From contig CALSPS010000006.1 of the NCBI GenBank assembly GCA_943788295.1, positions 26,192 to 90,191 on the forward strand: a DNA stretch of 64,000 nucleotides, in the 5' to 3' direction. Positions within the stretch are counted from its first letter, which is position 1, and the number at the start of each line of letters is the position of its first letter. Made by a program: the position numbers and the translations under genes. The notes under the pieces were generated by a model. That model had not been told where the DNA came from. It saw only the letters and a list, made by a program, of their open reading frames with translations, and did no database searches. This document shows, piece after piece, positions 16,753 through 53,806 of the stretch. This DNA comes from Candidatus Poseidoniaceae archaeon. Its GTDB lineage: Archaea; Thermoplasmatota; Poseidoniia; Poseidoniales; Poseidoniaceae.

Positions 16753-17265
16753 TCAGTGGTGGTGTCCACCGGGTCCATGGACGTGTCCGTGGTCCAACTC
16801 TTCTGGAGTAGCTGGGCGTAATTCAACAATTTCGACAGCAAATGTCAGCGATTGTCCTGCAAGAGCGTGGTTGAAATCTGCTGTGACCATGTCATCGGTT
16901 AGATTTGTGATGGTGAATGGGGATGGTCCGTGTGGCATCTGTGCCACAAGTTGCATTCCGGTTTCCAATGAATTTTCTGCTTCAAGTTGGGCGAATTGCT
17001 CTCGTGGAATTTCCATGACTGCAGAATCGTCCCGATCACCGTAGGCTTGGTCTGATTCCAGTGTGAACTCCTTGCGGTCTCCTACCTTTGCACCCATGAT
17101 TTCTTTTTCAAACCCTGGAATCATTTGCTTTTGGCCAACGATGAAGGTTAACGGTTCGCGCCCTTCACTGCTGTCAAAAACTTCACCGTTCTCTGGGAGA
17201 GTCCCAGTATAATGCACGCTTGCAACCATGTTGTCGCTGACTGTATGTTCTGCCATATAATTCAC
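16753..17265 (-). CDS. FKBP-type peptidyl-prolyl cis-trans isomerase (SlyD-like, IF-domain insert, His-rich C-terminus)
   Basis: VHYTGTLPENGEVFDSS, PLTFIVGQKQMIPGFE, and a C-terminal ELDHGHVHGPGGHHH metal-binding tail. Confidence 0.8.
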   Translation of the reverse strand: MNYMAEHTVSDNMVASVHYTGTLPENGEVFDSSEGREPLTFIVGQKQMIPGFEKEIMGAKVGDRKEFTLESDQAYGDRDDSAVMEIPREQFAQLEAENSLETGMQLVAQMPHGPSPFTITNLTDDMVTADFNHALAGQSLTFAVEIVELRPATPEELDHGHVHGPGGHHH

Positions 17266-18242
17266 CTTCTTGTTGTCATTTTGTTGACTAAGTCTCGTAG
17301 TTTTTGAGCTGCATTCTCTGGAAGAATTTCCTCCATCACTTTTTGCTCAATAAACTCAATCGAATCGGACACACCCATTCGTTCTCCTTTGGCCCAAACT
17401 TGGCCTAGGATGTTGGATCTGTGTTCTTCGGGAATGTTTGGATTATCCAAAATATCCCTTGCAGCATACTTGTACTCGAGGTACTTTTGCCGGTTCAATT
17501 TTTTCTCTTGCTTTTGCCGACCGCCACCTTTCTTATCGTGTCGTCGGCGTTTTCTGCGTCGGTCACCAGATGGTTTTGCCACAGCGGTTTGAATGGTTTT
17601 GAACACATTGTTCGAACCTTGCTTTGCTTCCGGTTGGGATGCTTGTGATGAAACAGTTTCAACGTTGACATTGGCAGTTTCAATGTTCGGTTCCATGGTC
17701 GTGTCTTGATCCGCTGAAACCGCAACGGGTTCTGCTTGAACAACAGCGGCAACTTCGGCCGGCTTCGCCTTTGCCTTCGCATTTTGGCGCGATAGTTCGG
17801 ACTTTCTGCGAAGTTCTGCAAGGCGGTCTTCATGGGACACTTGTGGTTTAGCTGGTGCAGGTTTGGCAACCGAACTTGTGATGGTCGGGGTCGAATTTCC
17901 CGGTGTAGGCTCGGGCTTGGAAGTGGATGGTTTTGAGGCCCCACCTTGTTGGCGCTTCATCCGCTCCATTGCCTCTTTTTGCTTCTTTGCCAATTCGGTC
18001 ATGCCTGAATTGGCTTCGACTTGAGGGGTTGTAGGACGTGCCGGTGCTGGCCGGCGTTCTACGTTTTTGCGTTCGGTTTGACGCTTGTTGCGTTGAGCGG
18101 AAGCATTTGGGGCGAACGGATTGAACGGCTCGTCCCGTTTTTTTCTTCCGTTCCGGTCTGCGATGCGAGAGGCCCCCACGCTGTTCCCGCTTGTGACCGT
18201 ATAAAAACAATGAGTGTACCTTGCCGTGTTTAAACCGGCCAT
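17262..18242 (-). CDS. Hypothetical Lys/Arg-rich low-complexity protein with a short conserved-looking C-terminal domain. It overlaps the kae1 stop.
   Basis: 326-aa ORF. The first ~250 residues are basic low-complexity (KKQKEAMERMKRQQGG..., GDRRRKRRRHDKKGGGRQKQEKK). The C-terminal ~70 aa look globular (NILGQVWAKGERMGVSDSIEFIEQKVMEEILPENAAQKLRDLVNKM). 13-nt overlap with kae1; the true start may be internal. Confidence 0.5.
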   Translation of the reverse strand: MAGLNTARYTHCFYTVTSGNSVGASRIADRNGRKKRDEPFNPFAPNASAQRNKRQTERKNVERRPAPARPTTPQVEANSGMTELAKKQKEAMERMKRQQGGASKPSTSKPEPTPGNSTPTITSSVAKPAPAKPQVSHEDRLAELRRKSELSRQNAKAKAKPAEVAAVVQAEPVAVSADQDTTMEPNIETANVNVETVSSQASQPEAKQGSNNVFKTIQTAVAKPSGDRRRKRRRHDKKGGGRQKQEKKLNRQKYLEYKYAARDILDNPNIPEEHRSNILGQVWAKGERMGVSDSIEFIEQKVMEEILPENAAQKLRDLVNKMTTRR

Positions 18243-19246
18243 GTGACTGGTGTTTGGTCGGTCCGGAGGTATTGATCAACGGCGCTTTGTGCATAGGACG
18301 TTGTTCGCCCATGGTCGAGTTCGATTTTTCCAAGAAGCGCAATCATCGAGCCGTTGTCAATGCAGAACATCCGTGGTGGAGCATGAGAGGTTGCCTCTCG
18401 CTCTTCAGCCATGAGCGTGCACATTTCTCTTAACCGATTGTTGCACGCAACACCGCCACCCAACAGGACTTCTGACTTGCCGGTGTGTGCTAACGCTCGC
18501 TCGGCAATTTCCACACAGGCTGCAAACGAGTGCTCTTGCAGCGACCAACACACAGCGCCCAGTTCCGCACCATTGTCCAGGAGTCGTTGTGCAGCAGTCA
18601 TGACGCCGGAAAAGGCAAGGTCCATGCCACGTACGGCAAAAGGCAACTCAAGCCCTTCTAGACTTGCATTTGGGTTTTTATCAAGCCATTCCTTTGCGAG
18701 TTTTTCGATGACAGGGCCGCCGGGGAAAGGGATGCCTTGGCCGCGAGCAAACTTATCGAGCATGTTCCCAATACCGATGTCCAATGTCTCACCGAGGACT
18801 CTGTAGCGACCATCGAGGTGGGCAATGACTTGCGTGTTTCCACCTGATACATAGAGAAGAATAGGATCGTTGCACCCACACTGCTGGCGTCCTATCTCAA
18901 TGTGAGCCACACAGTGATTGACTCCAATGAGGGGCGCTTCTAATTTACTCGCCATACCGCGGGCAATCGCAGCTCCAACCCTCAAACACGGTCCCAAACC
19001 GGGTCCTTGTGAATAGGCTACGGCACCGATGTCGTCTGCCGTGATTCCATTCGTTTCGAACAGGCGTTCGAGCAAGCCAAATGCAGCATCTTTGTGATGG
19101 TCTGCTGCCTCACGAGGGTGAATTCCGCCTTCGTCAGGTCGGACGGTCGATGAACTGGCTGGCGTGGGGACTCCATTTTGATCCACCAAACCAAAAGAAA
19201 GGGTGTGAGCGGTCGATTCGATACCCAAGGTCCACTGGCCCGGCAT
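18230..19246 (-). CDS. kae1: tRNA N6-adenosine threonylcarbamoyltransferase Kae1 (KEOPS catalytic subunit)
   Basis: 338 aa; GIESTAHTLSFGLV, HCVAHIE, YVSGGNTQVI, GGGVACNNRLR are Kae1/TsaD hallmarks. No fused Bud32 domain. Confidence 0.9.
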   Translation of the reverse strand: MPGQWTLGIESTAHTLSFGLVDQNGVPTPASSSTVRPDEGGIHPREAADHHKDAAFGLLERLFETNGITADDIGAVAYSQGPGLGPCLRVGAAIARGMASKLEAPLIGVNHCVAHIEIGRQQCGCNDPILLYVSGGNTQVIAHLDGRYRVLGETLDIGIGNMLDKFARGQGIPFPGGPVIEKLAKEWLDKNPNASLEGLELPFAVRGMDLAFSGVMTAAQRLLDNGAELGAVCWSLQEHSFAACVEIAERALAHTGKSEVLLGGGVACNNRLREMCTLMAEEREATSHAPPRMFCIDNGSMIALLGKIELDHGRTTSYAQSAVDQYLRTDQTPVTWPV

Positions 19247-19297
19247 GGTAAGGGGTTAGAGCCATTGTTCTTCAACCCTCAGCCTCAGCAGGCAACC

Positions 19298-20563
19298 ATG
19301 CGGACCGTTCTATTGGACATCGGGCCCATGGCGCACCTTGGAGGGAAGGGTCCTCTTTCTGGACTTTCGGCCACCGATTATGATTTACTTACATACGCTG
19401 CTGGAAAGGGGATTGTTGTAACTGATGATGTAATAGAGAAAATCGGGGAATCATCCGAACTGCGCTCTGAGTATGGTTCGCCAAAGGATTCAACCCAAGA
19501 TACCGCTATTCATTCCATGGAAGGATGCGCAGTCGTGCCCGGGTTGGTGGATGGGCATAACCATTTGATTTGGGCTGGTGATCGTTCCAACGAGATCACG
19601 ATGAAGCAGCAAGGTATGACATATCAACAAATAGCATCCACGGGTGGCGGTATTCAACACACCGTCAGAGAAACTTCGCAGGCCACATACGAGGAATTGA
19701 TCAAACTTGGTTACCAACGCATGCGCCATGCTCTTGTTCATGGCACGACACACCTAGAAAGCAAGAGTGGATATGGATTGTCGACGGAGTCTGAACTGAA
19801 ACTTCTGAATGTTGCACACGATCTAAGCCAAATGAATCACCTCCCAACGATGGAGTTGACATGGCTTGGCGCTCATGACACACCTAAAGGTGTCAAACGT
19901 TCGGACTATGTTGAGGAAATCCTTAGCGATCAACTTCCTAAAGTTCTTGACCAAGGCTATGCCAATGCCGCTGATGTCTTTTGCGAACCTGGTTGGTTCA
20001 CTGTAGAAGAAAGCGAATCCATCCTATTGGCCGCCGGAAAGGGCGGACTTCGCAAACGAATCCACATTGATGAATTCGAGGATGGTGGTGGTGGGGAATT
20101 AGCAGCTTCAATGGGGGTCATCACGGCAGATCATGCCCATTATACCGCACATGAAACGCGGTCGAGGATGGAATCTGCCGGTGTCAATACGGGGTTTTTG
20201 CCTGGGACTCCCTACACTATGGGTGCCGATTGGCCTTCGTTTTCAGATGCGACAGAGCAAGGGATTAGGTGGACGGTTGCAACCGACTTCAATCCAAACT
20301 GCAACATTCTCAGCATGCCACTCATTGGTTCGATGCTTGTTCATCGCAACCAAGTGGATCCACTGCTCGCATTGGTGGCCTCGACCAGAAATGCAGCAGA
20401 AACAACACCACATCCAACTGGAAGGCCACACGGGCGAATCGAGGTTGGCGCAGTAGCCAACCTCAACATCCTCGATGGAACTCAGTGGCAATCATGGTGC
20501 AACCGTCCAGGCACCACGCCATTCAAATCCACAATGCTGAATGGAACCTTAGTCCATCACTGA
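19298..20563 (+). CDS. hutI: Imidazolonepropionase (HutI)
   Basis: ORF 19178..20563; ATG 19298 (MRTVLLDIG) was verified. HutI metal ligands and motifs are present (VPGLVDGHNHLIWAG, HLESKSGYGL, GAHDTP, HIDEF, ADHAHY, VATDFNP). Confidence 0.8.
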   Translation: MRTVLLDIGPMAHLGGKGPLSGLSATDYDLLTYAAGKGIVVTDDVIEKIGESSELRSEYGSPKDSTQDTAIHSMEGCAVVPGLVDGHNHLIWAGDRSNEITMKQQGMTYQQIASTGGGIQHTVRETSQATYEELIKLGYQRMRHALVHGTTHLESKSGYGLSTESELKLLNVAHDLSQMNHLPTMELTWLGAHDTPKGVKRSDYVEEILSDQLPKVLDQGYANAADVFCEPGWFTVEESESILLAAGKGGLRKRIHIDEFEDGGGGELAASMGVITADHAHYTAHETRSRMESAGVNTGFLPGTPYTMGADWPSFSDATEQGIRWTVATDFNPNCNILSMPLIGSMLVHRNQVDPLLALVASTRNAAETTPHPTGRPHGRIEVGAVANLNILDGTQWQSWCNRPGTTPFKSTMLNGTLVHH

Positions 20564-21229: not shown

Positions 21230-21391
21230 ATGAGTTCGATGTCTGCTGTGGAAGGATTCTGTTTGAAGTGCAAGACCTATGGGCCGATTAAGGACGGTCA
21301 ACTGATCAAAATGAAAAACGGCCGCACGCGTATGGCTGGCTTCTGTTCACAAACTGGCTGCACGGGAAAAATTTCCAAAATCGTAAGCTAA
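21230..21391 (+). CDS. Small zinc-ribbon protein (53 aa; missed by the ORF track)
   Basis: Hand translation gives MSSMSAVEGFCLKCKTYGPIKDGQLIKMKNGRTRMAGFCSQTGCTGKISKIVS. It has CxxC...CxxxC cysteine pairs. A GGAGG Shine-Dalgarno-like motif lies 6-10 nt upstream. The pattern recalls the small archaeal DUF5679-type zinc ribbon. Confidence 0.55.
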   Translation: MSSMSAVEGFCLKCKTYGPIKDGQLIKMKNGRTRMAGFCSQTGCTGKISKIVS

Positions 21392-21449: not shown

Positions 21450-21525
21450 GGGCTCGTGGTCTAGGGGTTATGACGTCGCCTTGACATGGCGAAGATCGAG
21501 AGTTCAATTCTCTCCGAGCCCACCA
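21450..21525 (+). tRNA. tRNA-Val (anticodon GAC), with the 3' CCA encoded in the genome
   Basis: Manual cloverleaf: 7-bp acceptor GGGCUCG/CGAGCCC; D-arm; anticodon stem UCGCC/GGCGA with loop UUGACAU; T-arm GAGAG/CUCUC with loop UUCAAUU; discriminator A followed by CCA. No intron. Confidence 0.85.
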
Positions 21526-21608: not shown

Positions 21609-21980
21609 TTAATCTTCAACCTGAGTCAAATCCTCAGGGTCGGGTAAAACGAGATCGTCAGGGTCAACGCGAGAGAGGGGACGTTCTTCGATCTCTTCCA
21701 TTGTGAAATCAGATGAACCACCATCCCAATTCACTAAATCCTCAGTTTCTTCGAATATCTCATCAGGTAGAGCCTGCTCGGCTGAAAGCGAGTAGGCTGT
21801 AGGGTCAATTGGTTCTCGTTGAACTGGTTCAGGATTGGCTGGAGCGTTGCGTTCTTCCATGTGGATTCCAGAATGGAATGTGCCACACTCCGAACATCGG
21901 ACCGTACCTTTCCTCTCGAAACAGCCGCAGTTAGGGCATGATGCCAAGGCCGCGTACACGTCCAATGGATCCTTGCCCAT
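21609..21980 (-). CDS. Zinc-ribbon protein with an acidic C-terminal tail
   Basis: 123 aa; N-terminal CPNCGC...CSECG zinc ribbon, then a Pro/Glu/Asp-rich tail (EIFEETEDLVNWDGGSSDFTMEEIEERP). Confidence 0.5.
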   Translation of the reverse strand: MGKDPLDVYAALASCPNCGCFERKGTVRCSECGTFHSGIHMEERNAPANPEPVQREPIDPTAYSLSAEQALPDEIFEETEDLVNWDGGSSDFTMEEIEERPLSRVDPDDLVLPDPEDLTQVED

Positions 21981-21984
21981 TCAA

Positions 21985-23886
21985 TCACTCCACGAACATG
22001 TCTTCCTGGTAGCCCGTGATGATGTCGCCGGTTTCGTCTTCTTCGATGGTCACCGTTTCATCTTCGTCATCAAACTCGATAATGGTGCCAAAGACTTCCT
22101 CATCCTCAAGCGTTAGGCCAATGTGAGAGCCTATGTCGATCTCTCCTTCCCCTTCAGCGTCCTCGTCTTCCACGGATTCTTCGTCGGACTCATCATCCAA
22201 TTCTTCTTCCTCGAAATCCTCTTCGAGGGCTTCTTCCATCTCATCTTCGATGTTATCTTCTTCTTCCGATTCTGATTCAGTCGAAGCATCTGCTTGGTCG
22301 TCTTGGACTTCCTTCATTGCCTTCGCACGTCCACGCCAAGTCGGCATGAGGACCAGATGCATGTAGAGGGAACCAACAAGCCCCGCTGCTCCAAGAATCA
22401 TGAACAGTATTCCGTCCCAATAGAAGCCTGCAGGCATCGAACTGGATTTGCCACCCAGAGGCGTTAATGAGTTCTTACAATCCCCTTCCTGAATCGCAGG
22501 GTCACAGGGATATGAATCGCCTTCAGCAAGACCTGCTGGTGGGAGTAAGTTGCCCTTGGTCTCCAATTCAATTGGACCACCAGTTCCATCAACAATCACG
22601 CCGAATCCATTGACAACCCATAGGGCGATGAACAGTCCAAACGCTAGATGAATCAATGGCCATACATATTCGTTCCATTGCTTACCCATCATGCGCTTTT
22701 GCATCTCTGTTGGGAATGGCTTTGATGGTTTGCTGATGACGGCCCGATCATCTGTGGCTTCATCGGCATCAGCCAAATTTTCTAGGGCGGTGATAAATTC
22801 AATCATGTCCACGGTTCGATCGTTGTCCTCATCGACTTCGCTCAAGAATTCTTCGATTTGCTCGTGCCCGATTTCCTCATCAAACAACTTGTTCAATTCG
22901 TTCATTAATTCAACAACATCCACTCTGCCATTGGCATCTCGGTCAATGCTCCTGAAGAATTGAGCCGGGGAAGTTTCCATTTCATCCATGGCGTCAGCAA
23001 TCTTGCGAATGAGAGAGATCTCTTCGGAGCTTTCGACTTCCTCGGAGTGTGTTTCTTCAGTTTCTTCTTCGTCCATCGATTCTTCGATGCCATCATCTTC
23101 GACTTCCGACGTGTCCTCTTCAGCAACTTCTTCTTCACTCGATTCAGGATCGTCAGATTCAACATCTTCTTCAGAATCTTCGGTTGCCTCTTCTTCAAGT
23201 TCTGAATCTGATTCAACATCTTCTTCAGAATCTTCGGTTGCCTCTTCTTCAAGGTCTGAATCTGATTCAACATTTTCGTCAGTTGCTTCCTCTTCTTCCA
23301 CGGTTTCGGTTTCCACTTCATCTTCAGATTCAGTTTCTTGTTCTTCTTCGGTTCCCGCCACATTCACTTCTTCAGGTTCCTCCATAGCGGTGGTTGAGGT
23401 ATCGTTCAGTTCGTCTTCTGGCAAATCATCTCCAGTGATGGTTTTGTGCAACTCAGCAAGATCGATCCTTCCATCTCCGTCAGCATCTATTGTTTCGATA
23501 AGACGCTCAACTTGTGAAGGCGGCAAGTCTGCCAGATTGAGACTTAACAATCCAGACTTCAACTCACTTGAGTCGATTTGGCCATCGCCGTCCTTGTCGA
23601 ATTTGTTGAAGAGGATCGGAATCGTGATGCCTGTTGTTGCTAACCAATTTCGCAGTACGTCGACCACATCATCGGCAATGAAAACTGTACCGCAGTGGGT
23701 GCATTTGGTCGAATCTAACGGCACGAGGCCACCGCAAGCACCACACTCGCCGAGGGCTTCATCAGAGACTCCGGAAAAGGAAATATTGCATTCTGGACAC
23801 TTGGTTGAATCAAGGGGAATTACTGCTCTGCAAGCACCACATTCTCCTGTGGCAACTTCTTCAGTCTTGTCTTCGGACATAGGCAC
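21985..23886 (-). CDS. Double-zinc-ribbon, four-EF-hand, highly acidic membrane protein
   Basis: 633 aa. Two tandem CxxC...CxxC ribbons at the N-terminus. Four EF-hand loops (DKDGDGQIDSSE, DADGDGRIDLAE, DRDANGRVDVVE, DEDNDRTVDMIE). An acidic tandem-repeat block. Two hydrophobic helices (WPLIHLAFGLFIALWVV and ILFMILGAAGLVGSLYMHLVL). A poly-acidic C-terminal tail. Confidence 0.6.
   Translation of the reverse strand: MPMSEDKTEEVATGECGACRAVIPLDSTKCPECNISFSGVSDEALGECGACGGLVPLDSTKCTHCGTVFIADDVVDVLRNWLATTGITIPILFNKFDKDGDGQIDSSELKSGLLSLNLADLPPSQVERLIETIDADGDGRIDLAELHKTITGDDLPEDELNDTSTTAMEEPEEVNVAGTEEEQETESEDEVETETVEEEEATDENVESDSDLEEEATEDSEEDVESDSELEEEATEDSEEDVESDDPESSEEEVAEEDTSEVEDDGIEESMDEEETEETHSEEVESSEEISLIRKIADAMDEMETSPAQFFRSIDRDANGRVDVVELMNELNKLFDEEIGHEQIEEFLSEVDEDNDRTVDMIEFITALENLADADEATDDRAVISKPSKPFPTEMQKRMMGKQWNEYVWPLIHLAFGLFIALWVVNGFGVIVDGTGGPIELETKGNLLPPAGLAEGDSYPCDPAIQEGDCKNSLTPLGGKSSSMPAGFYWDGILFMILGAAGLVGSLYMHLVLMPTWRGRAKAMKEVQDDQADASTESESEEEDNIEDEMEEALEEDFEEEELDDESDEESVEDEDAEGEGEIDIGSHIGLTLEDEEVFGTIIEFDDEDETVTIEEDETGDIITGYQEDMFVE
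23161..23274. repeat. Perfect-to-near-perfect 57-nt direct tandem duplication (2 copies) inside the acidic region of the EF-hand protein gene
   Basis: aacatcttcttcagaatcttcggttgcctcttcttcaag(t/g)tctgaatctgattc occurs twice back to back. It encodes the repeated peptide ESDSxLEEEATEDSEEDV. Confidence 0.6.
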
Positions 23887-24021
23887 ACCTATTCTACCGA
23901 CAACAACAACGGATATAATGATTCATAGTCTTTCAACGGTTACCCATACCAATGGAGGGTTCAAACATGAGTGGCGTGACGAGTAAAAACCTCCTACGCG
24001 GACAGTTGTACAGTTGCAATT

Positions 24022-24843
24022 TTGCCGATGGAAGGGCCATGTTTGAATGGATCGATACCACATCCCAATCGAAGGATGATCATCTCGTTTTTGTCTCGAG
24101 ACTGCCCCATAGAAGGCTTGCTGGATCGCATTGATGTCTCAAAGGTCGAAACATATTGGATGACTCACCGAGTTGGACAGGCCCATATTGCTCCTGATTT
24201 GGAACAGTTACACGAATTAATCCTCTCCCGTATATCGAACCATCATGGTTGTATTATTCTCGAAGGGCTAGAGTGGTTGGTGACGTTGCATGGCGAAACG
24301 GTGATGTTAAATTTCGTTCGCAGTTTGAGGGATGATTTACATCGAACACAGTGGTCTATACTCATACCAATCAAGCCTCTGGCCTTTAATTCAATTTGGC
24401 TTGCAAGGTTCCACCGTGAAGCGCCGGAAATTGAATTGGAAACAGAAGAGCATAACGAAGTAGAAATCCATGTTGCGGACGAAATTGGGGAGGAACAAAC
24501 GATGGATACGACATCAACAGAGGAGGGATTACCAGTTCTTGTGATGCTGAATCGTCTCCCCGAAGTAGGGTTTACTAAGTCCATTTTACGGAAACGAATT
24601 TTACAGTGGCGGAGGATGGGGCTTGATGTATCGGAAGTTGAACCCGCTCTCCATTTTGATTCCGCTGAATCATACGCGTTGTATGCCTCCGTCGAAGAAA
24701 AAGTTCGACGGGCCGTGGAACTCGAACACTTGGTAGATGCAACTCATGAACACCTTACTGCAAGTGAACAAACCACATGTAAATTTAGAATTCGCCAACT
24801 CACTGGACTCGATGAAATCCAAGCGATGTTGATGTCCCGCTGA
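24022..24843 (+). CDS. DUF835-like domain protein. The N-terminal part may continue in another frame from 23952.
   Basis: 273-aa ORF with the DUF835-type core (GCIILEGLEWLVTLHGETVMLNFVRSLRDDLHRTQWSILIPIKPLAF). ORF 23952..24134 in a different frame looks like the family N-terminus. The DUF835 assignment is from memory. Confidence 0.45.
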   Translation: MPMEGPCLNGSIPHPNRRMIISFLSRDCPIEGLLDRIDVSKVETYWMTHRVGQAHIAPDLEQLHELILSRISNHHGCIILEGLEWLVTLHGETVMLNFVRSLRDDLHRTQWSILIPIKPLAFNSIWLARFHREAPEIELETEEHNEVEIHVADEIGEEQTMDTTSTEEGLPVLVMLNRLPEVGFTKSILRKRILQWRRMGLDVSEVEPALHFDSAESYALYASVEEKVRRAVELEHLVDATHEHLTASEQTTCKFRIRQLTGLDEIQAMLMSR

Positions 24844-26394
24844 TCATCGTGGGATACGGCCGTTCTCCGCTTCGATCCGTGCTAACCAGGCCCCATCTGA
24901 CAATGCGGTAGCGATGTTGATGAGTTCTTGACTTGTGCTGCGGTCACCGCTGAGTGGCTTTGCTAGTGTGCGAACGCGTTGCTTCAAGCTTGCAACATAA
25001 GTGGACGGTTCAAGTGATTCAAACTCCAATGCCTCGCACGCAACCAACAGTTCGCACGCTAAAACTTCCGACAAACGTTGCGTGGCTTGAAGCAGATTCC
25101 ATGCAGCGGTGGCGCCCATGCTCACATGGTCCTCTTGTCCAGCAGAAGTGCTGGTGGAAAAGGCAGCTCGTGGACTTGCGTGACCATGGAGTTCTGCCAA
25201 AGATGCTCCGGCAACATACTGAACAATCATCAAACCGGATTCCAAGCCAGAGTTTCTGGCCAGGAAAGCTGGCAATTCACTTCGTGCTGGATCCAGCATT
25301 TGGTCAATCCTACGTTCAGAAATAGATCCGAGCTCAAACAAGGCTGCAGACATAGAATCTGCTGTTAAGGCAATCACCTCTCCATGGAAATTCCCCTGGG
25401 AAATGACTTCATGTGGGCCTGGGTTCTTCGGGTCTGGAAAAATAAGTGGGTTATCTGTTGCACTGTTCAATTCGATCGTGAGCGTTTCAAGCATGGCAGT
25501 GTATTTTTGTAAAACTGCACCATGAACCTGGGGGGCGCATCGGAATGAATACGCATCTTGTACTCGTTCACAATCTGCGTGTGAGTCAAGAATCTCGGAT
25601 TTGACCATCAAGCTTCGAATCCTTTTGGCAACGAGACTCTGACCCGGATGGGGTCGCGCATCATGTACACGCGGATCTGAAGGTTGGATGCTTGCCTTTC
25701 TGGCTTCCATTGAGGTGCAAAGGATCAAATCGGCCAGTGGTAGAAGCGATGACAATCTTCGTTCGGCAAGGGTCATGAAGGCCAACATTTGACTGGTGCC
25801 GTTGATCAAAGATAATCCGTCCTTTGCACCCAATTTTATCCCGATAAGACCGTGTTCCCTAAGCACGGCTTCTGTTGGCGCAGGTGCTCCATTTTGGTCC
25901 AAAACATAGCCTTCTCCGAGCAATGCTAAGGCCATGTGAGAGAGTGGTGCTAAGTCCCCACTTGCACCAAGGCTTCCAATTCTCGGCACGTAAGGAATGA
26001 TATCTTTATTGAGAAATTCCAGAAGTTGATCTAAGACATTTGGGTGGACGCCTGAGTGGCCTTTAACGAGCGAATTAATTCGGACAGCCATCATTGCACG
26101 GACAGCGTTTTTGGGCATTGCCTCTCCAAGTCCAGTAGCGTGTGAACGGACCAAATTGGTTTGCAACTGAGCCAAATCATCGGGAGAAATTCGTTCATGG
26201 ACCAAGGCGCCGAACCCAGTATTAATTCCATACACCGTTTCACCGCGGGAAAGAATTCCATCCACAACAGAACGAGCAGCGTGGACCTTTTGCCAAGCAT
26301 CTTCTGAAATAGCTACATCTGCATGATTCGAAGCGATGCGTTCAACTTCAGCCGGAGTTAATGTGGTGCCATCAAAATGGATTGTGTTTCTCAT
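24844..26394 (-). CDS. hutH: Histidine ammonia-lyase (HutH)
   Basis: 516 aa with the MIO-forming ASG triad context (GSLGASGDLAPLSH) and the HAL family N-terminus. Confidence 0.9.
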   Translation of the reverse strand: MRNTIHFDGTTLTPAEVERIASNHADVAISEDAWQKVHAARSVVDGILSRGETVYGINTGFGALVHERISPDDLAQLQTNLVRSHATGLGEAMPKNAVRAMMAVRINSLVKGHSGVHPNVLDQLLEFLNKDIIPYVPRIGSLGASGDLAPLSHMALALLGEGYVLDQNGAPAPTEAVLREHGLIGIKLGAKDGLSLINGTSQMLAFMTLAERRLSSLLPLADLILCTSMEARKASIQPSDPRVHDARPHPGQSLVAKRIRSLMVKSEILDSHADCERVQDAYSFRCAPQVHGAVLQKYTAMLETLTIELNSATDNPLIFPDPKNPGPHEVISQGNFHGEVIALTADSMSAALFELGSISERRIDQMLDPARSELPAFLARNSGLESGLMIVQYVAGASLAELHGHASPRAAFSTSTSAGQEDHVSMGATAAWNLLQATQRLSEVLACELLVACEALEFESLEPSTYVASLKQRVRTLAKPLSGDRSTSQELINIATALSDGAWLARIEAENGRIPR

Positions 26395-28448
26395 GGATCA
26401 TCACCGTCTGGAAAAAGAGAATCGAGAAAGACAGAATCGGTCGAATGAGGGAGTGTGATTGTAAGCCGCTTTTCGGCCTCCATTGCCCTTTTGATGGCGA
26501 ATTTTGCACCGTTATTACGTGCCCAGGCTCTTCTCGCAACGCCATTGTTGACATCCCAATGGAGCATGGATTGGAGTTTCTTCTCACATTCATCGCTCCC
26601 ATCGAGCAACATGCCAAACCCACCGTTCATCACTTGACCCCATCCGACGCCCCCACCATTGTGAAGGCTGACCCATGTTGCGCCTCGAAACGCATCGCCA
26701 ACAAAATTCTGAACGGCCATGTCTGCGGTCCACATGGATCCGTCCCGAATGTTAGCGGTTTCCCGATACGGGCTGTCGGTTCCCGACACATCGTGGTGGT
26801 CACGACCCAAAACAATGGGCCCGGATAGTTCTCCGTTACGAATGGCTTGATTCATCGCAGAAGCAATTTTTCTGCGACCTTCATCGTCTGCATAGAGAAT
26901 GCGAGCTTGGGAACCAACCACCATTTGATTTTGACCGGCTTCCTTAATCCACCGAATGTTGTCTTTCATTTGTTGGGTAATTTCTGGCGGCGAAGTATCC
27001 ATCATTGATTCGAGAACTTCCATTGCAATTTGATCCGTCTTCTTCAGATCGTTTGAATCCCCAGAACAGCATACCCATCGGTATGGACCAAACCCATAGT
27101 CGAAACACATGGGGCCCATGATATCTTCAACATAACTGGGGTACCTAAAACTCCCATCGCCGTTGATTACGTCTGCGCCTGCTCTACCCGCTTCGAGCAA
27201 GAAGGCGTTTCCATAATCCCAGAAATACATGCCCGCTTCCGACATGACATTGATTGCAGCAGCGTGGCGTACGAGGGTTTCACGAACTTTCGTTTTGAAC
27301 AGTTCTGGATCGTTTGAGAGCATTTCTGCGGCCTCTGAATATGGCATTCCTACTGGGAAATAACCACCTTGGAATGGGTTGTGAAGGCTTGTTTGATCAG
27401 AACCAAGATCGACGCGGACTTTCCGTTCTACCAACCGCTCCCAAAGTTCGACAATGTTACCAACATACCCGATGGATATTGCTTGGCGGTTGGCGGCGCA
27501 TTCGACCATTCGATCAATGGCAACATCGATGTCCTCGGTCACCTCAGATAACCAACCTTGCTGGTGACGCTTGTATGCTGCGTGTTGGTTGGATTCAGCC
27601 ACAATGCATGACGCGCCTGCGATGACGGCTGCTTTTGCTTGTGCCCCAGACATACCTCCAAGGCCAGAGGTGACGAAGGTGACGCCCTCCAGCCCCGAAT
27701 CGCCGGATATGCCCAAATGCGCTCTTGCAGCGTTAAGGAGCGTTATGGTTGTGCCATGGACGATGCCTTGGGGCCCGATGTACATGTAAGAGCCTGCTGT
27801 CATCTGCCCGTATTGTGTGACGCCCAGTGCGTTGAGGCGTTCGTAATTATCTGGTGTCGATTCACTTGGAATCATCATCCCATTGGTGACAACCACCCGA
27901 GGTGCGTTGACATTGGAGGGAAAAAGACCCATTGGATGGCCAGAATACATGACGAGCGTTTGTTCATCGCTCATGACTGAAAGGTATTGCATGGTCAACC
28001 TGTACTGAGCCCAGTTTTGAAACACGGAACCGTTCCCACCATAGGTGATGAGTTCATGTGGAAATTGTGCAACAGCAGGATCCAAATTATTCTGAATCAT
28101 GAGCATGATTGACGCGGCATGGATTGATTTTGCAGGGTATGCGTCGATTGGATGGGCTTTCATATCGTATTCTGTGGGGCGAAACCTCCACATAATGATG
28201 CGTCCGAAGGTGTTCAATTCCTCTGCAAACTCGGGGCCTAGAATTGCATGATGTTTTTCATCAAAATAACGCAAGGCGTTTTCCAAGGCCAATTTCTTTT
28301 CTTTTTGGGTAAGGACTTGGCGTCTTTTTGGCGCCCTATCGACGTTCGAATCAATGCCAGGGTGCGCAGGAAGTGTGTCGGGGATACCCTCTCCTATATG
28401 CGCCCTCAACCCGCGAACATCCGTGCCCATGTTTGCTTGAAACCGCAC
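26391..28448 (-). CDS. hutU: Urocanate hydratase (HutU), long form
   Basis: 685 aa; typical urocanase motifs (MTAGSYMYIGPQGIVHGTT, NAD-binding GLGGMSGAQ). Overlaps the hutH start by 4 nt. Confidence 0.9.
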   Translation of the reverse strand: MRFQANMGTDVRGLRAHIGEGIPDTLPAHPGIDSNVDRAPKRRQVLTQKEKKLALENALRYFDEKHHAILGPEFAEELNTFGRIIMWRFRPTEYDMKAHPIDAYPAKSIHAASIMLMIQNNLDPAVAQFPHELITYGGNGSVFQNWAQYRLTMQYLSVMSDEQTLVMYSGHPMGLFPSNVNAPRVVVTNGMMIPSESTPDNYERLNALGVTQYGQMTAGSYMYIGPQGIVHGTTITLLNAARAHLGISGDSGLEGVTFVTSGLGGMSGAQAKAAVIAGASCIVAESNQHAAYKRHQQGWLSEVTEDIDVAIDRMVECAANRQAISIGYVGNIVELWERLVERKVRVDLGSDQTSLHNPFQGGYFPVGMPYSEAAEMLSNDPELFKTKVRETLVRHAAAINVMSEAGMYFWDYGNAFLLEAGRAGADVINGDGSFRYPSYVEDIMGPMCFDYGFGPYRWVCCSGDSNDLKKTDQIAMEVLESMMDTSPPEITQQMKDNIRWIKEAGQNQMVVGSQARILYADDEGRRKIASAMNQAIRNGELSGPIVLGRDHHDVSGTDSPYRETANIRDGSMWTADMAVQNFVGDAFRGATWVSLHNGGGVGWGQVMNGGFGMLLDGSDECEKKLQSMLHWDVNNGVARRAWARNNGAKFAIKRAMEAEKRLTITLPHSTDSVFLDSLFPDGDDP

Positions 28449-46459: not shown

Positions 46460-46627
46460 GGAGGTTCGACAGGCGCGTCCTTGATGAACCAACCGCTATT
46501 TTTTCCTGAGTTGTACAATTCCGACATCTGTGATGCATTCACCGATTTGTTTTCAGTGTTGATTGATTCATCAAAGCCTAAGGGGAGTCATTGTTTGGGG
46601 GTCAAATCAACTGGTTGCATTGCATTC

Positions 46628-48802
46628 ATGCTGTTGGTGATGCTTTCTATGCCTGTGGCCTCAAGTGCGTCAACCATATCGTTCACTGGCGCCACTACCG
46701 TGGAGGCCACTGACGGATCTTCCGCCCTAACCATTGATTCTGAACAGAAATACCTAGCGAGCGGTTACGATGACCACATGGCCATTATGTGGCTAGAAAA
46801 TTTGTCGCTGATTGAAATTATTGATGTTGATCGACCCGTCGAATCGCTGGAATTTTCGCCAGATGGTTCTCAATTGGCCATTGCGATATCAGGTTCTGAA
46901 ACGAAGGTCGACACCATTCAATTATTCGATGTCCAAAGCATGACCATGAGCGCTAAGCAGCAAGCTGCAAACGCACGGCCAGTGGACATTGCCTGGTCCC
47001 CAGATGGTCTTTTGCTCGCCGTTCCAAACGCCAATAATGGCATTGATTTAATCCGTATTTCCGATATGGAAATTGAGCGGAGTTTGACTGGTGAGCATAA
47101 CACGGACGTAACATGTGTCGGATTCACAAGCAATGGTGGCCACATCATCAGCGGAGATGAGTCTGGGCGAATGGTTATGTGGAACAGCGATGGTACGCCA
47201 ACATCCAAAAAATGGGAGTTTGGGAATGAACTCAAAGCATGTTCCTTTGATCCAACTGACACACGCATAGCATCGCTTACCACAGACGGAGCGTTGAACA
47301 CCTTCTCCTTCGCCGGTGGTGCATTACAAAGCACGCAATTCACTTCCGGAGGCGGCATGTCATGGTCTCACGAGGGGACCTACATTCACTTGACTGAAAA
47401 CGGAGATGAACCGCGATTACTGACGCTGGATGCTTCTACATTTGAACAAGTGGAAGCAACCTCTATGGCTCATCAGGTGCTCGATGTTGCAACTATCGAA
47501 AACCAATTTGGGTTAATCCAAGAATTCTACGCAGCGACCAATACTCTTCACTTAGCCGGGTATGGCAGCCATTCCGTGCCTGAAGGAATGGGTGTGGCCG
47601 GAGCTGACCTCGACGGAGACGGCATCCCTGATACCCTTGATGATGACGACGATGGCGATGCGATATTGGACCAGTGGGATACCTACTGCGGCGAGATAGA
47701 AACTGATTGTTCACGCTCCCCTCACGAAGATCATATTCGTTCACTTACGATTCAAATGAACGCCACGCACATGACCATTAAGGATCGGATCAAATTAGAT
47801 ATCGTCCTTTCATCCTCAATCAGAAATATGTCGAGAATATCTGTCATTGAGGATGCCCAACTCAGTGTCAGCGAGACCGATTTATTTGCCCGCTCCATTT
47901 GTGCCAACCACGATGAAACAAGAATCCTCGAACAGTGGAAAGATACGTTGATGCTTTCTGAAGGTCAATTAGAAGGTGGGGTCGTGAACTGCGCGGTAAG
48001 CGAAGGCATGACGCTTCGTGCGCAAAATGATTTCAAAACTCACATCGGTGTTGAATACACTATTTCCTTCAACCTGTCCTCGTCACCGGCATTTCCGTTG
48101 ACTGTTAGGTTCGAAGAGCAAACTGTAGCCACTGATGCGTCATTGACCCATCTTGCAGAAATGCATCCCATTCATGTGGTCCTCTCTGCAAACGGGGCAA
48201 ATGATGTCGAATTGTCTCCTTGGTGGACCACTGAATCTCCTTTGGAACTCACATTGGAAGAACGTGTTGTCAAAGAGCCTACCTTGACTCAGAAAGGTGT
48301 GGGTTTATTCGCTGATTATCCCATTCTCTTTGTCGTCGTCCTTGGCTTCCTTGGAGGAGGTATTTTGCTTGTATTGAGGACTAAAAATACAATGGGAATG
48401 GATCTCAACATCTTTGATGAAGATGATGACGATGAGCCTAGTTCCGAAGAAGACGTGGCTGAACCAAGCGCACAAATTGAGCAAGAAACTTTGAACGAGG
48501 CATCCAATGTTGAAACCGAAACAGAACATCTCGTCGATTCAAAAACTACTGTTCGGGACACAACAAGCGATCGCTCAGTTCAATCAACTAAGCGTAGGAA
48601 AGTGAGCCCATCCACAACCAGAGATGGCCCTATTACAACGGTAAAGAGAAAGCGCTTGGATGGAGGAGGGAACCCTCCTGTCCAGAAGAGATCAACCAGC
48701 AAAAAACGAGTTGTCAAGGTGAGTGAAACGACGAAGCGGAAGACCAGAAGGGTTGTGACTCAAGCCGATAAAGATGAAGAAGACACTTCACCAAGCGAAT
48801 GA
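46628..48802 (+). CDS. Secreted WD40/beta-propeller repeat surface protein with a C-terminal TM anchor and a Lys/Arg-rich cytoplasmic tail
   Basis: ORF 46481..48802; a signal-peptide-like start is at ATG 46628 (MLLVMLSMPVASSAS). Repeated SPDG-, WSPDG-, GD.SG-type WD/PQQ-like blades. A DLDGDGIPDTLDDDDDGD calcium-binding-like loop. A TM helix (LFVVVLGFLGGGILLVL) and a basic tail. Confidence 0.55.
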   Translation: MLLVMLSMPVASSASTISFTGATTVEATDGSSALTIDSEQKYLASGYDDHMAIMWLENLSLIEIIDVDRPVESLEFSPDGSQLAIAISGSETKVDTIQLFDVQSMTMSAKQQAANARPVDIAWSPDGLLLAVPNANNGIDLIRISDMEIERSLTGEHNTDVTCVGFTSNGGHIISGDESGRMVMWNSDGTPTSKKWEFGNELKACSFDPTDTRIASLTTDGALNTFSFAGGALQSTQFTSGGGMSWSHEGTYIHLTENGDEPRLLTLDASTFEQVEATSMAHQVLDVATIENQFGLIQEFYAATNTLHLAGYGSHSVPEGMGVAGADLDGDGIPDTLDDDDDGDAILDQWDTYCGEIETDCSRSPHEDHIRSLTIQMNATHMTIKDRIKLDIVLSSSIRNMSRISVIEDAQLSVSETDLFARSICANHDETRILEQWKDTLMLSEGQLEGGVVNCAVSEGMTLRAQNDFKTHIGVEYTISFNLSSSPAFPLTVRFEEQTVATDASLTHLAEMHPIHVVLSANGANDVELSPWWTTESPLELTLEERVVKEPTLTQKGVGLFADYPILFVVVLGFLGGGILLVLRTKNTMGMDLNIFDEDDDDEPSSEEDVAEPSAQIEQETLNEASNVETETEHLVDSKTTVRDTTSDRSVQSTKRRKVSPSTTRDGPITTVKRKRLDGGGNPPVQKRSTSKKRVVKVSETTKRKTRRVVTQADKDEEDTSPSE

Positions 48803-50872: not shown

Positions 50873-53806
50873 TCACTGAGAACCTGGTGTGAAGAAGTTC
50901 GAGTTAACGATGAATTTTCTGAACTCGTCGATGACAAAAACCGAACCGGATACCGCGAATATGATTGCCCAATCCGTCGCAGTTAACACTGTTGTTGACA
51001 TCAAGTCACCCACCAGTAAAGTGGTGAATGGAATGCTGTGTTCTGCAAGTTGAACAAAGAACATCAACAAACCGAGCGAGAATAAAAAGGCGTAATTGAT
51101 CCATTGATTTGAAAATAAACCAAGTTTAAACGCGCTTTCCCTATTGCTTCGGCAATTCATCACGTTAAACAGTTGATAGACAATGAACACGGAGAACGTC
51201 ATGGTTTGAGCATGTTGGAACAATTCCTCGTTTTTTGTTTCCGAGGCCTGAATTGCGGCGAGTTGTTCTTCACTGGCTTCATCGCCCATTCGCTCACCAA
51301 GTTCACATTGGGCGACATCGAATGGAGCCTCTGCTTCAGTTTGCAGCGGGTGGATCTCACAAGTACCCACTCCACCACCTGCAAGGAAGAAGACAATCAG
51401 CGTCCCAGTGACCATCACAGCACCAAGATAGAAGATTAGGGTGATGTCACTGAAATTAGGCATGCCTTCATTGACTGGACGCGGTGGTTGATTCATGACA
51501 TCCCCGTGGTTTTTCTCAACACCAAGCGCGACGGCTGGTGGACCATCCATCAGGATGTTGATCACGAGAATTTGTGTTGCGGTCAAAGGTAAATTCCAAC
51601 CGAACAAGAACGTCGAAATAATGATCAAAGCAACAGCTGCGACGTTCGTAGAGACTTGATAGCGCACGAAATTGCGAATGTTCTGGTAAATTTTGCGACC
51701 TTCTTCAACAGCATGGACAATGTTGGCAAAATTGTCATCTTGGAGCACCATGTCTGCTGCGTCTTTTGCTACGTCAGTACCTGCGATGCCCATTGCAATT
51801 CCGATGTTCGCACGAGATAAAGCGGGGGCGTCATTGACACCATCACCGGTCATGGCCACAATTTCCCCTTGGTCTTGTAGTGATGAGACAATCCGCATTT
51901 TCTGTTCAGGTGTCACTCTGGAGAAGATGGAGGCTTGAGCCGATGCTTCACTCAATTGTTCATCATCAAAATCCGCCAAAGCATTACCGTTGACTGGTGG
52001 TATGCCACCTTCGGTAATGTTCAACTCTCGACCAATGGCTTCCGCAGTGTATTGTTGATCACCAGTGATCATTTTCACGCGGATACCCGCACGCTGACAC
52101 ACTTCAATAGCATCTTTCACTTCGGCTCGTGGCGGGTCCATGATACCAACGAGTCCTAGGAAAATGAAGCTTGATTCAACTGTGTTGATGTCCTCGATGT
52201 CTTCGTCCTCATCAAGACGACGAGCACAAAGTGCGATGACGCGCATGGCTTGTCCTGCCATGGCCTTGTTGGCCTCAGAGGCTAGATCGAAGTCTGCATC
52301 CTCAATAGGAACGATTTCTCCATCTTTAATTTTCCAGTTCACAAGAGAAACATATCCACCGGCACCACCTTTCGAAAAGACCCAACGTTCGCCTTCGTAG
52401 TCGTGAATCACCGACATCCGCTTTCTGTTGGTGTCGAAAAAGAATTCATGGAGCCGTGAATGGCGTTGAGCAAATTTCTTCACATCACCGTTGATTTTCC
52501 AACCAAGAACAGCACATGCTGAGTCTGTTGGGTCGCCAAGCGCCTGCCATTGGCCGTCCACTTTAGAAATTTGAGAGTTATGGCACAGGCTCAAGCATGC
52601 GGCAGAGAGACGGAAGGCAAGATCGCTTTGGTACCCTGAGAGTTCCTCTCCAGTGACTGTTTTTCCGTTGTAAGAGAGTTCACCTTTTGGTTTGAAACCC
52701 TCACCCGAGATTGTAAATGTACCATCCGTAGTGGTCAATTGGCGTGCAGTCATTTGGTTCTTGGTGAGTGTACCGGTTTTGTCAGAGCAAATGACAGTTG
52801 TGGAACCAAGCGTTTCAACAGCCTTCATCCGTCGAATAATCGCTTTGTGTTTGGCCATATTCCGCATACCAAGCGCGAGCGTAATAACAAGGATAATTGG
52901 CAAGCCTTCTGGAACAATGGCAACAAAGATGGCAATGGCCACGATGAATTGTTCAACCGCCACCTCTCGCAAATCGGCTGTCGGATCGCCATAGGCAATC
53001 ATCATCTTGATGGCGACCATGAGAACCGCTACGACAAGCGCTACAATGCCTAGGAATTTACCCAGGGATTCGAGTTTGTGCTCAAGTGGGGTTTTTGGCG
53101 ACTCCGAGCCGACGATATCACTGGCAATCCGGCCAAGTTCGGTGTTCATTCCAATGTTGACCACAATGCCGACAGCACGTCCAGTGGCTACACTTGTGCC
53201 CATGTAAGCCATGTTATTCCTGTCAGCAAGCAATGCCTCGGTAGGGAGCGGTGCTGTGGTTTTCTTGATGCTGTCAGATTCACCAGTCAACGATGATTCA
53301 TCGATTTTGCATTGATAGGACTCGACCACGCGAACGTCGGCTGGCACATTGATGCCTTCTTCCAGTTTGACCACGTCGCCGGGAACCAAGAGGGGCGTAG
53401 GCACCTCTTGCTCAACGCCATCGCGGACAACAATACAACTTGAAACTGCCATTTGTTTGAGCGAATCCATCGCCTGTTCCGCTTGTCCTTCTTGCCAAAA
53501 TCCAAACACTGCATTTGCAGTGAGGACTGAAAAAATGAAAATAGCATCTCCCGGTTGATCTGGATGTATTGAGAGAGCAACAAGAGCAGCTCCGATGAGA
53601 AGATAATTCAGTGGATCGTTGTATTGGGAAAGGAAACGCAACCATGCTGGGGTTTTTTCTGGTTCTTGAAGCTTGTTTTCACCGTACTTAGCTCGTCGAA
53701 TATCAACCTCAGAAGCAGTTAAGCCTTCAGGCTGGGTCTCGAGCGTGAGATAAGTGTCTTCAGAAGTCACATCGTGCCATTGTTGTTGTGCCATGGAATT
53801 CACCAA
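50873..53806 (-). CDS. P-type cation-transporting ATPase (type IIA, Ca2+-ATPase-like)
   Basis: 977 aa; DKTGTLT phosphorylation motif, TGES, GDGVNDAPAL, 10 TM helices. Confidence 0.9.
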   Translation of the reverse strand: MVNSMAQQQWHDVTSEDTYLTLETQPEGLTASEVDIRRAKYGENKLQEPEKTPAWLRFLSQYNDPLNYLLIGAALVALSIHPDQPGDAIFIFSVLTANAVFGFWQEGQAEQAMDSLKQMAVSSCIVVRDGVEQEVPTPLLVPGDVVKLEEGINVPADVRVVESYQCKIDESSLTGESDSIKKTTAPLPTEALLADRNNMAYMGTSVATGRAVGIVVNIGMNTELGRIASDIVGSESPKTPLEHKLESLGKFLGIVALVVAVLMVAIKMMIAYGDPTADLREVAVEQFIVAIAIFVAIVPEGLPIILVITLALGMRNMAKHKAIIRRMKAVETLGSTTVICSDKTGTLTKNQMTARQLTTTDGTFTISGEGFKPKGELSYNGKTVTGEELSGYQSDLAFRLSAACLSLCHNSQISKVDGQWQALGDPTDSACAVLGWKINGDVKKFAQRHSRLHEFFFDTNRKRMSVIHDYEGERWVFSKGGAGGYVSLVNWKIKDGEIVPIEDADFDLASEANKAMAGQAMRVIALCARRLDEDEDIEDINTVESSFIFLGLVGIMDPPRAEVKDAIEVCQRAGIRVKMITGDQQYTAEAIGRELNITEGGIPPVNGNALADFDDEQLSEASAQASIFSRVTPEQKMRIVSSLQDQGEIVAMTGDGVNDAPALSRANIGIAMGIAGTDVAKDAADMVLQDDNFANIVHAVEEGRKIYQNIRNFVRYQVSTNVAAVALIIISTFLFGWNLPLTATQILVINILMDGPPAVALGVEKNHGDVMNQPPRPVNEGMPNFSDITLIFYLGAVMVTGTLIVFFLAGGGVGTCEIHPLQTEAEAPFDVAQCELGERMGDEASEEQLAAIQASETKNEELFQHAQTMTFSVFIVYQLFNVMNCRSNRESAFKLGLFSNQWINYAFLFSLGLLMFFVQLAEHSIPFTTLLVGDLMSTTVLTATDWAIIFAVSGSVFVIDEFRKFIVNSNFFTPGSQ

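Follow-up and report, generated by a model that had tools for sequence, protein, structure and literature searches.

The window analysed here, a 64,000-nucleotide stretch of contig CALSPS010000006.1 from a Candidatus Poseidoniaceae archaeon, contains two adjacent genes for acidic zinc-ribbon proteins, the larger of which combines a double zinc ribbon, paired EF-hands, a two-helix hairpin and a C-terminal barrel and belongs to a real, uncharacterised family. The two open reading frames (ORFs) share the minus strand; one spans 21985..23886 and yields 633 aa when read from a GTG, the other spans 21609..21980 and yields 123 aa. Both proteins begin with Cys4 zinc ribbons, so that the ORFs and CxxC motifs bear out the initial annotation of this locus. 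The 633 residues stated there hold for the ORF from its GTG; the closest homologues (99-100% identical), however, start two codons further on, at the ATG at 23880, which gives 631 aa. GGTG lies 5 nt upstream of this ATG, with a TATA-like 'cattatat' farther upstream. Residues of the large protein are numbered from the GTG at 23886 (633-aa numbering) unless stated. We refer to the two genes as BIG and SMALL; Asp plus Glu content is abbreviated D+E, and the confidence score of AlphaFold2 (AF2), the predicted local distance difference test, pLDDT. The features of the pair are as follows.

21985..23880 (stop included), minus strand: large gene ('BIG'), 631 aa from the ATG at 23880, from the ORF and its homologues
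23680..23847, minus strand: double zinc ribbon, two Cys4 units (aa 14-37, 46-69), from CxxC motifs and DZR
23434..23670, minus strand: EF-hand pair 1 (aa 73-151; loops DKDGDGQIDSSE and DADGDGRIDLAE), from Pfam EF-hand_1/EF-hand_7 and the calmodulin match
23017..23424, minus strand: acidic disordered linker 1 (aa 155-290, D+E ~51%), pLDDT <50, holding the 54-bp repeat
22750..23013, minus strand: EF-hand pair 2 (aa 292-379; loops DRDANGRVDVVE and DEDNDRTVDMIE), from Pfam and conserved ligands
22588..22722, minus strand: basic juxtamembrane helix KPFPTEMQKRMMGKQW and transmembrane helix 1 (aa 389-433), from hydropathy, AF2 and invariant residues
22429..22587, minus strand: predicted extracellular loop (aa 434-486), YPCDP..Q.GDCKNSLTP..G..SSMPxGFYxDG, with conserved Cys
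22297..22428, minus strand: transmembrane helix 2 and basic juxtamembrane WRGRAKAMKEV (aa 487-530), from hydropathy, AF2 and invariant W/R/K
22144..22296, minus strand: acidic disordered linker 2 (aa 531-581; D+E 65% across the family), pLDDT <50
21988..22143, minus strand: Tudor/SH3-like beta-barrel (aa 582-633), from AF2 and Foldseek
21609..21980, minus strand: small gene ('SMALL'), 123 aa, beginning 4 nt past the stop of the large gene, from the ORF
21870..21944, minus strand: single Cys4 zinc ribbon of SMALL (aa 13-37, CPxCGC..KG..RCxECGTFH), CxxC at 15 and 29
21699..21806, minus strand: motifs DPxxYSL, lPDExFEE and WxGGSxDFtF in the acidic tail of SMALL (aa 59-94), from the orthologue alignment

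Homologues of the large protein are numerous and, by our searches, appear essentially confined to the Poseidoniales and some unplaced marine relatives. A word-indexed search returned 1655 of them, the best 120 measuring 590-640 aa; the names among the matches listed are few and generic, such as 'EF-hand domain-containing protein [Euryarchaeota archaeon]' or 'hypothetical protein'. Among GTDB species representatives, 38 of 38 true matches are metagenome-assembled genomes (MAGs) of Poseidoniales or MAGs labelled Euryarchaeota/Methanobacteriota archaeon, the original Marine Group II (MG-II) assembly CM001443.1 included, while the remaining eight matches are EF-hand-only and bacterial. An exhaustive phmmer search with aa 386-633 against 1.84 billion representatives found 87 proteins only, 25 of them at E<=1e-30. 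This distribution places the window in a genome of the Poseidoniaceae (MGIIa). NCBIfam offered no curated family-level model for the large protein, only a sub-threshold match to XopAW. The difficulty of assigning this architecture to a known family, already remarked on, is thus borne out, and the family is real and uncharacterised.

The strongest profile evidence within the large protein concerns its EF-hands. Direct inspection locates four 12-residue loops, in two pairs, at aa 97, 134, 315 and 352; Pfam recognises them as EF-hand_1 (PF00036) in four stretches with E=4.5e-17 and 60.7 bits against a cut-off of 25.4, and as EF-hand_7 (PF13499), EF-hand_6 and EF-hand_5 with 59.8, 55.6 and 47.5 bits against cut-offs of 30, 25 and 25.9. 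Both pairs match calmodulin (E 1e-12 to 1e-13, phmmer against PDB sequences). In an AF2 model of the large protein, built on 35 diverse family members, pair 1 reaches pLDDT 88-91 and pair 2 93-95, and Foldseek with the whole model against the PDB returned calmodulin and troponin C only. As is characteristic of EF-hands, the loops are paired, their positions 1, 3, 5 and 12 offer oxygen ligands, and position 8 is hydrophobic. The initial annotation had called all four canonical; the loops themselves and their profile scores stand, but the fourth carries Arg rather than Gly at position 6. Of 35 relatives (31-91% identity), ~30-34 have D/N/S/E at the ligand positions 1, 3, 5 and 12 of each loop, and purifying selection on these positions is supported by this alignment. 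Pair 1 has 55% pairwise identity in these relatives, and among the closer ones (59-91% identical overall) most of its residues, beyond the ligands, are invariant, a pattern more in keeping with a sensor that offers an interaction surface than with a buffer. We infer from these features that the EF-hands of the large protein bind Ca2+.

The zinc ribbons in front of them are the best-conserved part of the large protein, with 62-68% pairwise identity, and all eight cysteines, which form four CxxC pairs (aa 16/30 and 48/62 by direct inspection), are kept in 34 of the 35 relatives. DZR (PF12773) scores 20 bits in the full-length scan, below its cut-off of 27.3, and 28.8 bits in a scan limited to the 65-aa N-terminus; UPF0547 (PF10571) reaches 30 bits against a cut-off of 29 for the isolated N-terminus, and 17 of 17 family members tested match DZR, with a best E of 3e-10. 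The N-terminal double zinc ribbon proposed earlier is thereby substantiated. Its AF2 confidence is moderate (pLDDT 64-83), and a sequence comparison of the ribbons with the PDB gave nothing significant, the best matches, C2H2 fingers and ribbons of RNA polymerase or the ribosome with E above 0.005, being at chance level.

The membrane anchor consists of two hydrophobic segments (aa 407-433 and 487-515) separated by a stretch that holds Cys461 and Cys470. AF2 places helices at 392-398 and 400-426 in the region of the first (pLDDT 92-94) and a single long helix at 488-536, both membrane helices being modelled at pLDDT 92-94, while both cysteines are kept in 32 of 35 relatives; the two membrane helices around a Cys-containing loop that had been read from the sequence are therefore well founded. 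The loop, with 48% pairwise identity, is modelled as four short strands at pLDDT 64-79. Four to five Lys/Arg residues lie before helix 1 and after helix 2, and the loop with its two conserved cysteines is net acidic. Furthermore, two family members of ~760 aa, in loci L015 (4965-7247) and L032 (2787-5060), carry an extra EF-hand pair between helix 2 and the C-terminal barrel, which argues that both arms of the protein reside in one compartment. Zinc ribbons are cytoplasmic modules. In the simplest reading of these features, both termini would be cytoplasmic and the ~55-aa loop would lie outside, probably stabilised by a disulfide.

The hairpin with its Cys loop also occurs twice in tandem in two basic proteins of ~610-640 aa, P0160 (L049:1541-3460) and P0185, with the loop motif ..YPCDP..C.N..TP..SMP.G.Y.D... 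As these proteins have no zinc ribbon, EF-hand or barrel, the hairpin and loop constitute an independent module, for which there is no Pfam family.

Both proteins had been described as ending in acidic tails. This is true of the small protein, but the large one ends in a folded, very acidic domain, predicted to be a Tudor/SH3-like barrel. Its last 50 residues have pLDDT 91-95 in the full model and the domain modelled alone 90.4, with four DSSP strands and a short terminal strand. The best Foldseek matches are the Tudor domains of SMN, PHF1 and TDRD3, Agenet, and the KOW domain of Spt5 (TMq, the TM-score on the query, 0.78-0.84; probability 1.00; E ~0.01), at a root-mean-square deviation of 1.4-2.9 A and 5-20% sequence identity. 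All Pfam matches of the barrel are sub-threshold: the RimP_C SH3 domain in 13 of 19 members (best E=1.5e-4) and Tudor in 3 of 19. A sequence comparison of the domain with the PDB gave nothing significant, its best matches being chance-level. The barrel has 37% D+E and 54% pairwise identity in the 35 relatives, and its conserved aromatics are an F/Y before an invariant Gly, F26 and F52.

A barrel at 60-67% identity closes several otherwise unrelated proteins (L055:6601-7065, L056:4720-5184, L048:8001-12086 and L057:965-1687). Among these, P0176 (154 aa) adjoins a tyrosine recombinase and an N6/N4 DNA methylase, P0173 (1361 aa) has a phosphatase-like region and is encoded on a 41-kb contig whose ORFs are large, unannotated and co-directional, and P0199 is a small membrane protein with the barrel at its end. 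From this distribution, the barrel would seem to be a portable docking module that mobile elements may have borrowed. On the 41-kb contig, which is at most possibly viral, PHROGs and Pfam gave only a polynucleotide kinase-like match and a weak phosphatase match; a scan of IMG/VR for the C-terminal domain found no relatives and thus lends no support to the notion of a barrel common in viruses.

The folded parts are joined by acidic linkers. With D+E contents of 30.8% and 24.4%, the large and the small protein stand far above the 40 other ORFs of the window (12.8 +/- 2.3%, maximum 16.5%), the large protein by >7 standard deviations; hence the acidity is specific to these two proteins. The GAA/GAT-rich, purine-rich acidic coding on the minus strand also accounts for a dip of the GC skew and the AT skew (both -0.15) in the bin 22001..24000. 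A plus-strand ORF at 22988..23986 (332 aa, Ser-rich) is rejected as an antisense shadow of the GAA/GAT-rich linker, the homologues supporting the minus-strand gene.

AF2 assigns pLDDT <50 to aa 165-284 and 540-578 (in 631-aa model numbering; +2 for the 633-aa numbering). In 35 relatives the linkers are 56-65% D+E yet show just 27% (linker 1) and 30% (linker 2) pairwise identity, and their lengths range from 30 to 228 aa and from 34 to 106 aa, respectively; acidic linkers are nevertheless present in every family member despite this turnover. Between close strains, the folded domains are nearly invariant and the linkers are altered by substitutions, insertions and deletions. Linker 1 includes what had been described as an acidic tandem-repeat array. 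The repeat is real, but comprises merely 2.4 copies of a 54-bp unit (23156..23282, Tandem Repeats Finder), and exactly one 18-aa unit is absent both from the near-identical strain P0011 and from the 91%-identical P0025. The 18-aa repeat is, by this comparison of strains, a recent, strain-variable duplication in a seemingly fast-evolving disordered spacer rather than a conserved functional array. The calsequestrin-like, high-capacity reading of the initial annotation is therefore not supported, as these segments are predicted to be disordered and cytoplasmic, have 27-30% identity and vary in length between strains.

The small protein combines its ribbon with an acidic tail. The ribbon is conserved in an alignment of 15 orthologues, with all Pfam zinc-ribbon matches below threshold, and the three tail motifs are retained in distant orthologues. 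None of 33 homologues has a Pfam domain, and their names, where there are any, are hypothetical or generic automated ones. Short motifs in disordered tails are typical docking sites, and the EF-hand pairs or the barrel of the large protein are obvious candidates to bind them. An origin of SMALL as a duplicate of the N-terminus of the large protein was considered and dropped, the similarity being of a CxxC level over just 24 aa (E=8e-4, single comparison) and insufficient. In one protein of 193 aa (P0202), the barrel runs straight into the SMALL zinc ribbon; its garbled tail suggests a frameshifted assembly, not a true fusion.

The two genes are conserved as a pair: syntenic homologues, which the initial annotation had proposed to look for in related archaea, are present, and SMALL immediately follows the large gene wherever a locus offers enough sequence, the distant loci L047 and L052-L054 included. 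Across 17 loci, the two genes are usually separated by 4 nt (range -20 to +12). SMALL also lies 4-6 nt downstream in four distant members, whose identity outside the N-terminal domains is 25-33% and whose hutH is just 34% identical to that of the window; they retain DUF835 where upstream sequence exists, and have an AlaX-like gene inserted farther downstream. As the pairing is kept in distant loci with a different downstream neighbour, it is a property of the family. Its architecture is similarly persistent, in that the two zinc ribbons, the hairpin with an acidic arm on either side of it, and the terminal barrel recur in all full-length members, while the number of EF-hand pairs falls from four (L015, L032) to none. 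The member without EF-hands, P0195 (L053:3636-4919, 427 aa), retains the zinc ribbons, acidic arms, hairpin and barrel as well as the DUF835 neighbour and SMALL. In the distant members P0181, P0191 and P0195, the loop is replaced or has no Cys motif.

The surrounding genes are listed next.

19178..20563: hutI
24844..26394: hutH
26391..28448: hutU; the three hut genes flank the gene pair and are split by five unrelated genes and the tRNA
24022..24843, plus strand: DUF835 (inactivated KaiC-like) gene, divergent from the large gene, true start probably an ATG near 24076
21450..21525, plus strand: tRNA-Val(GAC), by ARAGORN, convergent with SMALL

All related loci for which sufficient sequence exists share one order: hutU, hutH, DUF835 (on the other strand), the large gene, SMALL, tRNA-Val (again on the other strand), DUF5679, an ABM-domain gene and hutI. 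The DUF835 domain (PF05763) scores 37.3 bits against a cut-off of 33.1; the orthologues carry it too, in the same position in all related loci, distant L052-L054 included. DUF835 has been described as an iKaiC output domain of archaeal response regulators (PMC5847659), which makes the gene a plausible but unproven third component of the large-small system. The hut arrangement is conserved across Poseidoniales and distant relatives; L054 has additional formiminotransferase-cyclodeaminase genes upstream, and no regulator is evident. The collinear block is wider still, holding Kae1 and methylmalonyl-CoA mutase as well, and we therefore discount the hut synteny as functional evidence and read the wider synteny as probable general collinearity rather than as a role in histidine catabolism.

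The initial annotation had also stressed the proximity of a tRNA gene. The tRNA-Val does adjoin the pair, but it is a vertically conserved neighbour, found at the matching position, with identical gene order around it, in 13 of 14 related loci. A genomic island or an element integrated at the tRNA is rejected on these grounds and because the GC content does not depart from that of the window; the immediate surroundings (19.2-28.4 kb) show no integrase. Likewise, the Ca2+-type P-ATPase (50873..53806) and the WD40 protein (46481..48802) that had been linked to the pair are real genes, but they lie 22-27 kb away with nothing connecting them to it.

Two further ORFs nearby deserve mention. Adjoining the tRNA is a Cys-rich DUF5679 protein of 53 aa (21230..21391, plus strand; Pfam score 21.7 against a cut-off of 27), up to 92% identical across Poseidoniales and 62-64% in distant loci. 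An ORF of 326 aa (17262..18242, minus strand) with an isoelectric point of 10.2 and no Pfam match overlaps the end of the Kae1/TsaD gene, and L053 has an unannotated 338-aa gene at the equivalent position.

What can be concluded about the function of the pair? We favour a calcium-regulated membrane tether with cytoplasm-facing arms, working with the co-transcribed SMALL, to which we assign a probability of about one half. Here the two-helix hairpin would anchor the large protein, leaving a small disulfide-stabilised knob outside and sending two polyanionic disordered arms into the cytoplasm, the N-terminal arm presenting the double zinc ribbon and the EF-hand pairs and the C-terminal arm the docking barrel. 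Seawater contains ~10 mM Ca2+, and leaks or influx would for that reason be a real signal. Upon a rise in cytosolic Ca2+, the EF-hand pairs would load, change conformation, and bind or release a target, which could be the protein's own basic juxtamembrane helices or the tail motifs of SMALL; the set of partners that the zinc ribbons and the barrel keep at the membrane would change as a result. The occurrence of the barrel on unrelated proteins is as expected of a portable docking module. The membrane-associated Ca2+-binding or Ca2+-sensing protein envisaged in the initial annotation thus survives in its membrane anchor and validated EF-hands, but not in its high capacity. Several points weigh against the tether as we describe it. 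Its topology is derived from the positive-inside rule and the architecture; loop 4 alternates between Gly and Arg at position 6 across relatives, with Arg in 14 of 35, this protein included; the synteny with DUF835 and hut is weak functional evidence, since the block also includes Kae1 and methylmalonyl-CoA mutase; and P0195, by keeping the core without EF-hands, shows that the core function needs no calcium, calcium binding being an add-on.

This last point leads to a calcium-independent tether, in which the conserved core anchors nucleic-acid or protein machinery and the EF-hands are structural metal sites or lineage decoration. Tudor/KOW/SH3-like barrels and zinc ribbons are typical nucleic-acid and protein docking modules, and precisely these parts are the most conserved (62-68% in the ribbons, 54% in the barrel), whereas EF-hand pairs vary from 0 to 4 and P0195 does without them while retaining its core, DUF835 neighbour and SMALL. 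Nevertheless, we consider this unlikely, as ligands are strongly conserved wherever EF-hands occur and EF-hand pair 1 is among the best-conserved parts, which is unexpected for decoration. The signal might instead come from outside, the Cys loop sensing an external cue and passing it through hairpin and arms to DUF835 and SMALL, possibly controlling the hut genes. Such an outside-in receptor would make sense of the 48% pairwise identity of the loop with its motif YPCDP..C.NSLTP..SSMP, of its duplication as an independent module in P0160/P0185, of an output domain such as DUF835 (PMC5847659) divergent from the large gene in every locus, and of hutU/hutH and hutI flanking the block in all loci, distant ones included. 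However, the loop is just ~55 aa long with pLDDT 64-79 and is replaced or devoid of the Cys motif in P0181, P0191 and P0195, Pfam and NCBIfam reveal no kinase, HAMP or other transducer domain in the large protein, and the synteny extends to unrelated housekeeping genes, as general collinearity would; we regard a receptor as improbable.

Least consistent with our data, and very improbable, is a membrane-attached Ca2+ buffer or store of high capacity and low affinity that would work through the poly-Glu/Asp blocks, as in calsequestrin. The linkers are indeed 51-65% D+E and occur in every family member, and the overall D+E content exceeds that of other window ORFs by >7 standard deviations. But Pfam and Foldseek find no thioredoxin fold or other calsequestrin feature; the blocks are predicted to be disordered and to lie in the cytoplasm, where free Ca2+ is low, in a prokaryote without a storage lumen; their length and sequence are unconstrained even between strains, which fits a spacer or entropic bristle better; and the strongest constraint falls on zinc ribbons, EF-hand pair 1 and barrel, not on the acidic blocks. 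In a bolder extension of the calcium-regulated tether, which we also think improbable, DUF835, the large protein and SMALL would form a dedicated archaeal module of cytosolic Ca2+ signalling, in which the sensor captures or releases SMALL upon Ca2+ influx and so controls gene expression or another process, with mobile elements carrying copies of the barrel to interfere. If true, this would be evidence for a Ca2+ second messenger in one of the ocean's most abundant archaeal groups.

To our knowledge, the use of cytosolic calcium as a signal in archaea is largely unexplored, and EF-hand sensors have been studied experimentally in few bacteria only. Against this background, the pair offers a calmodulin-like EF-hand protein conserved throughout the Poseidoniales (Marine Group II), which rank among the most abundant archaea of the plankton, and accompanied by a fixed small partner gene. 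New here are familiar modules in an undescribed architecture, and two modules without a curated family, one the Cys-loop hairpin, the other the acidic Tudor-like barrel. Should the large protein be a structural tether only, the result would be a modest annotation gain for some two thousand database entries. Although the organisms are uncultured, the soluble pieces are of a size suited to recombinant expression. In the searchable literature, Poseidoniales lineage-specific families with calcium-binding domains are covered by one sentence (PMC9258230).

How does the large protein compare with known systems? Its zinc ribbons share with DZR and UPF0547 two consecutive CxxC-x10-CxxC units; DZR is a generic module without a defined function, and the fusion to EF-hands and hairpin is specific to the large-protein family. 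With Tudor, Agenet, KOW and SH3-like barrels it has in common the fold of its last ~50 aa, but it differs in its extreme acidity, with 5-20% identity and no Pfam threshold passed. Calsequestrin is alike in acidic density; the large protein, however, is without thioredoxin-like domains, and its acidic parts are disordered linkers, predicted to be cytoplasmic rather than luminal. The nearest experimentally studied analogue of a prokaryotic EF-hand Ca2+ sensor is EfhP of Pseudomonas aeruginosa, a protein of ~150 aa that has a single anchor helix and two presumably periplasmic EF-hands. EfhP (PA4107) is a membrane-anchored EF-hand protein that binds Ca2+ and mediates Ca2+ regulation (PMC9132961, PMC4053335). 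The large protein has four EF-hands, predicted to be cytoplasmic, and zinc ribbons, acidic arms and a barrel in addition; between the two sequences, no relationship apart from the EF-hand motif was seen. Similar in design are the prokaryotic calmodulin-like EF-hand pairs fused to membrane-associated signalling domains (Schaffer, Iyer, Burroughs, Aravind 2020, PMC7016017), as both have paired canonical EF-hands nearest to calmodulin within a multidomain, membrane-associated protein. The fusions nearest to eukaryotic calmodulin come from bacteria (cyanobacteria, actinobacteria, proteobacteria and verrucomicrobia), with seven-transmembrane, redox and other domains, whereas the large protein is archaeal. 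Its joining of EF-hand pairs with a double zinc ribbon, a hairpin of two helices and a Tudor-like barrel is absent from the list in that review.

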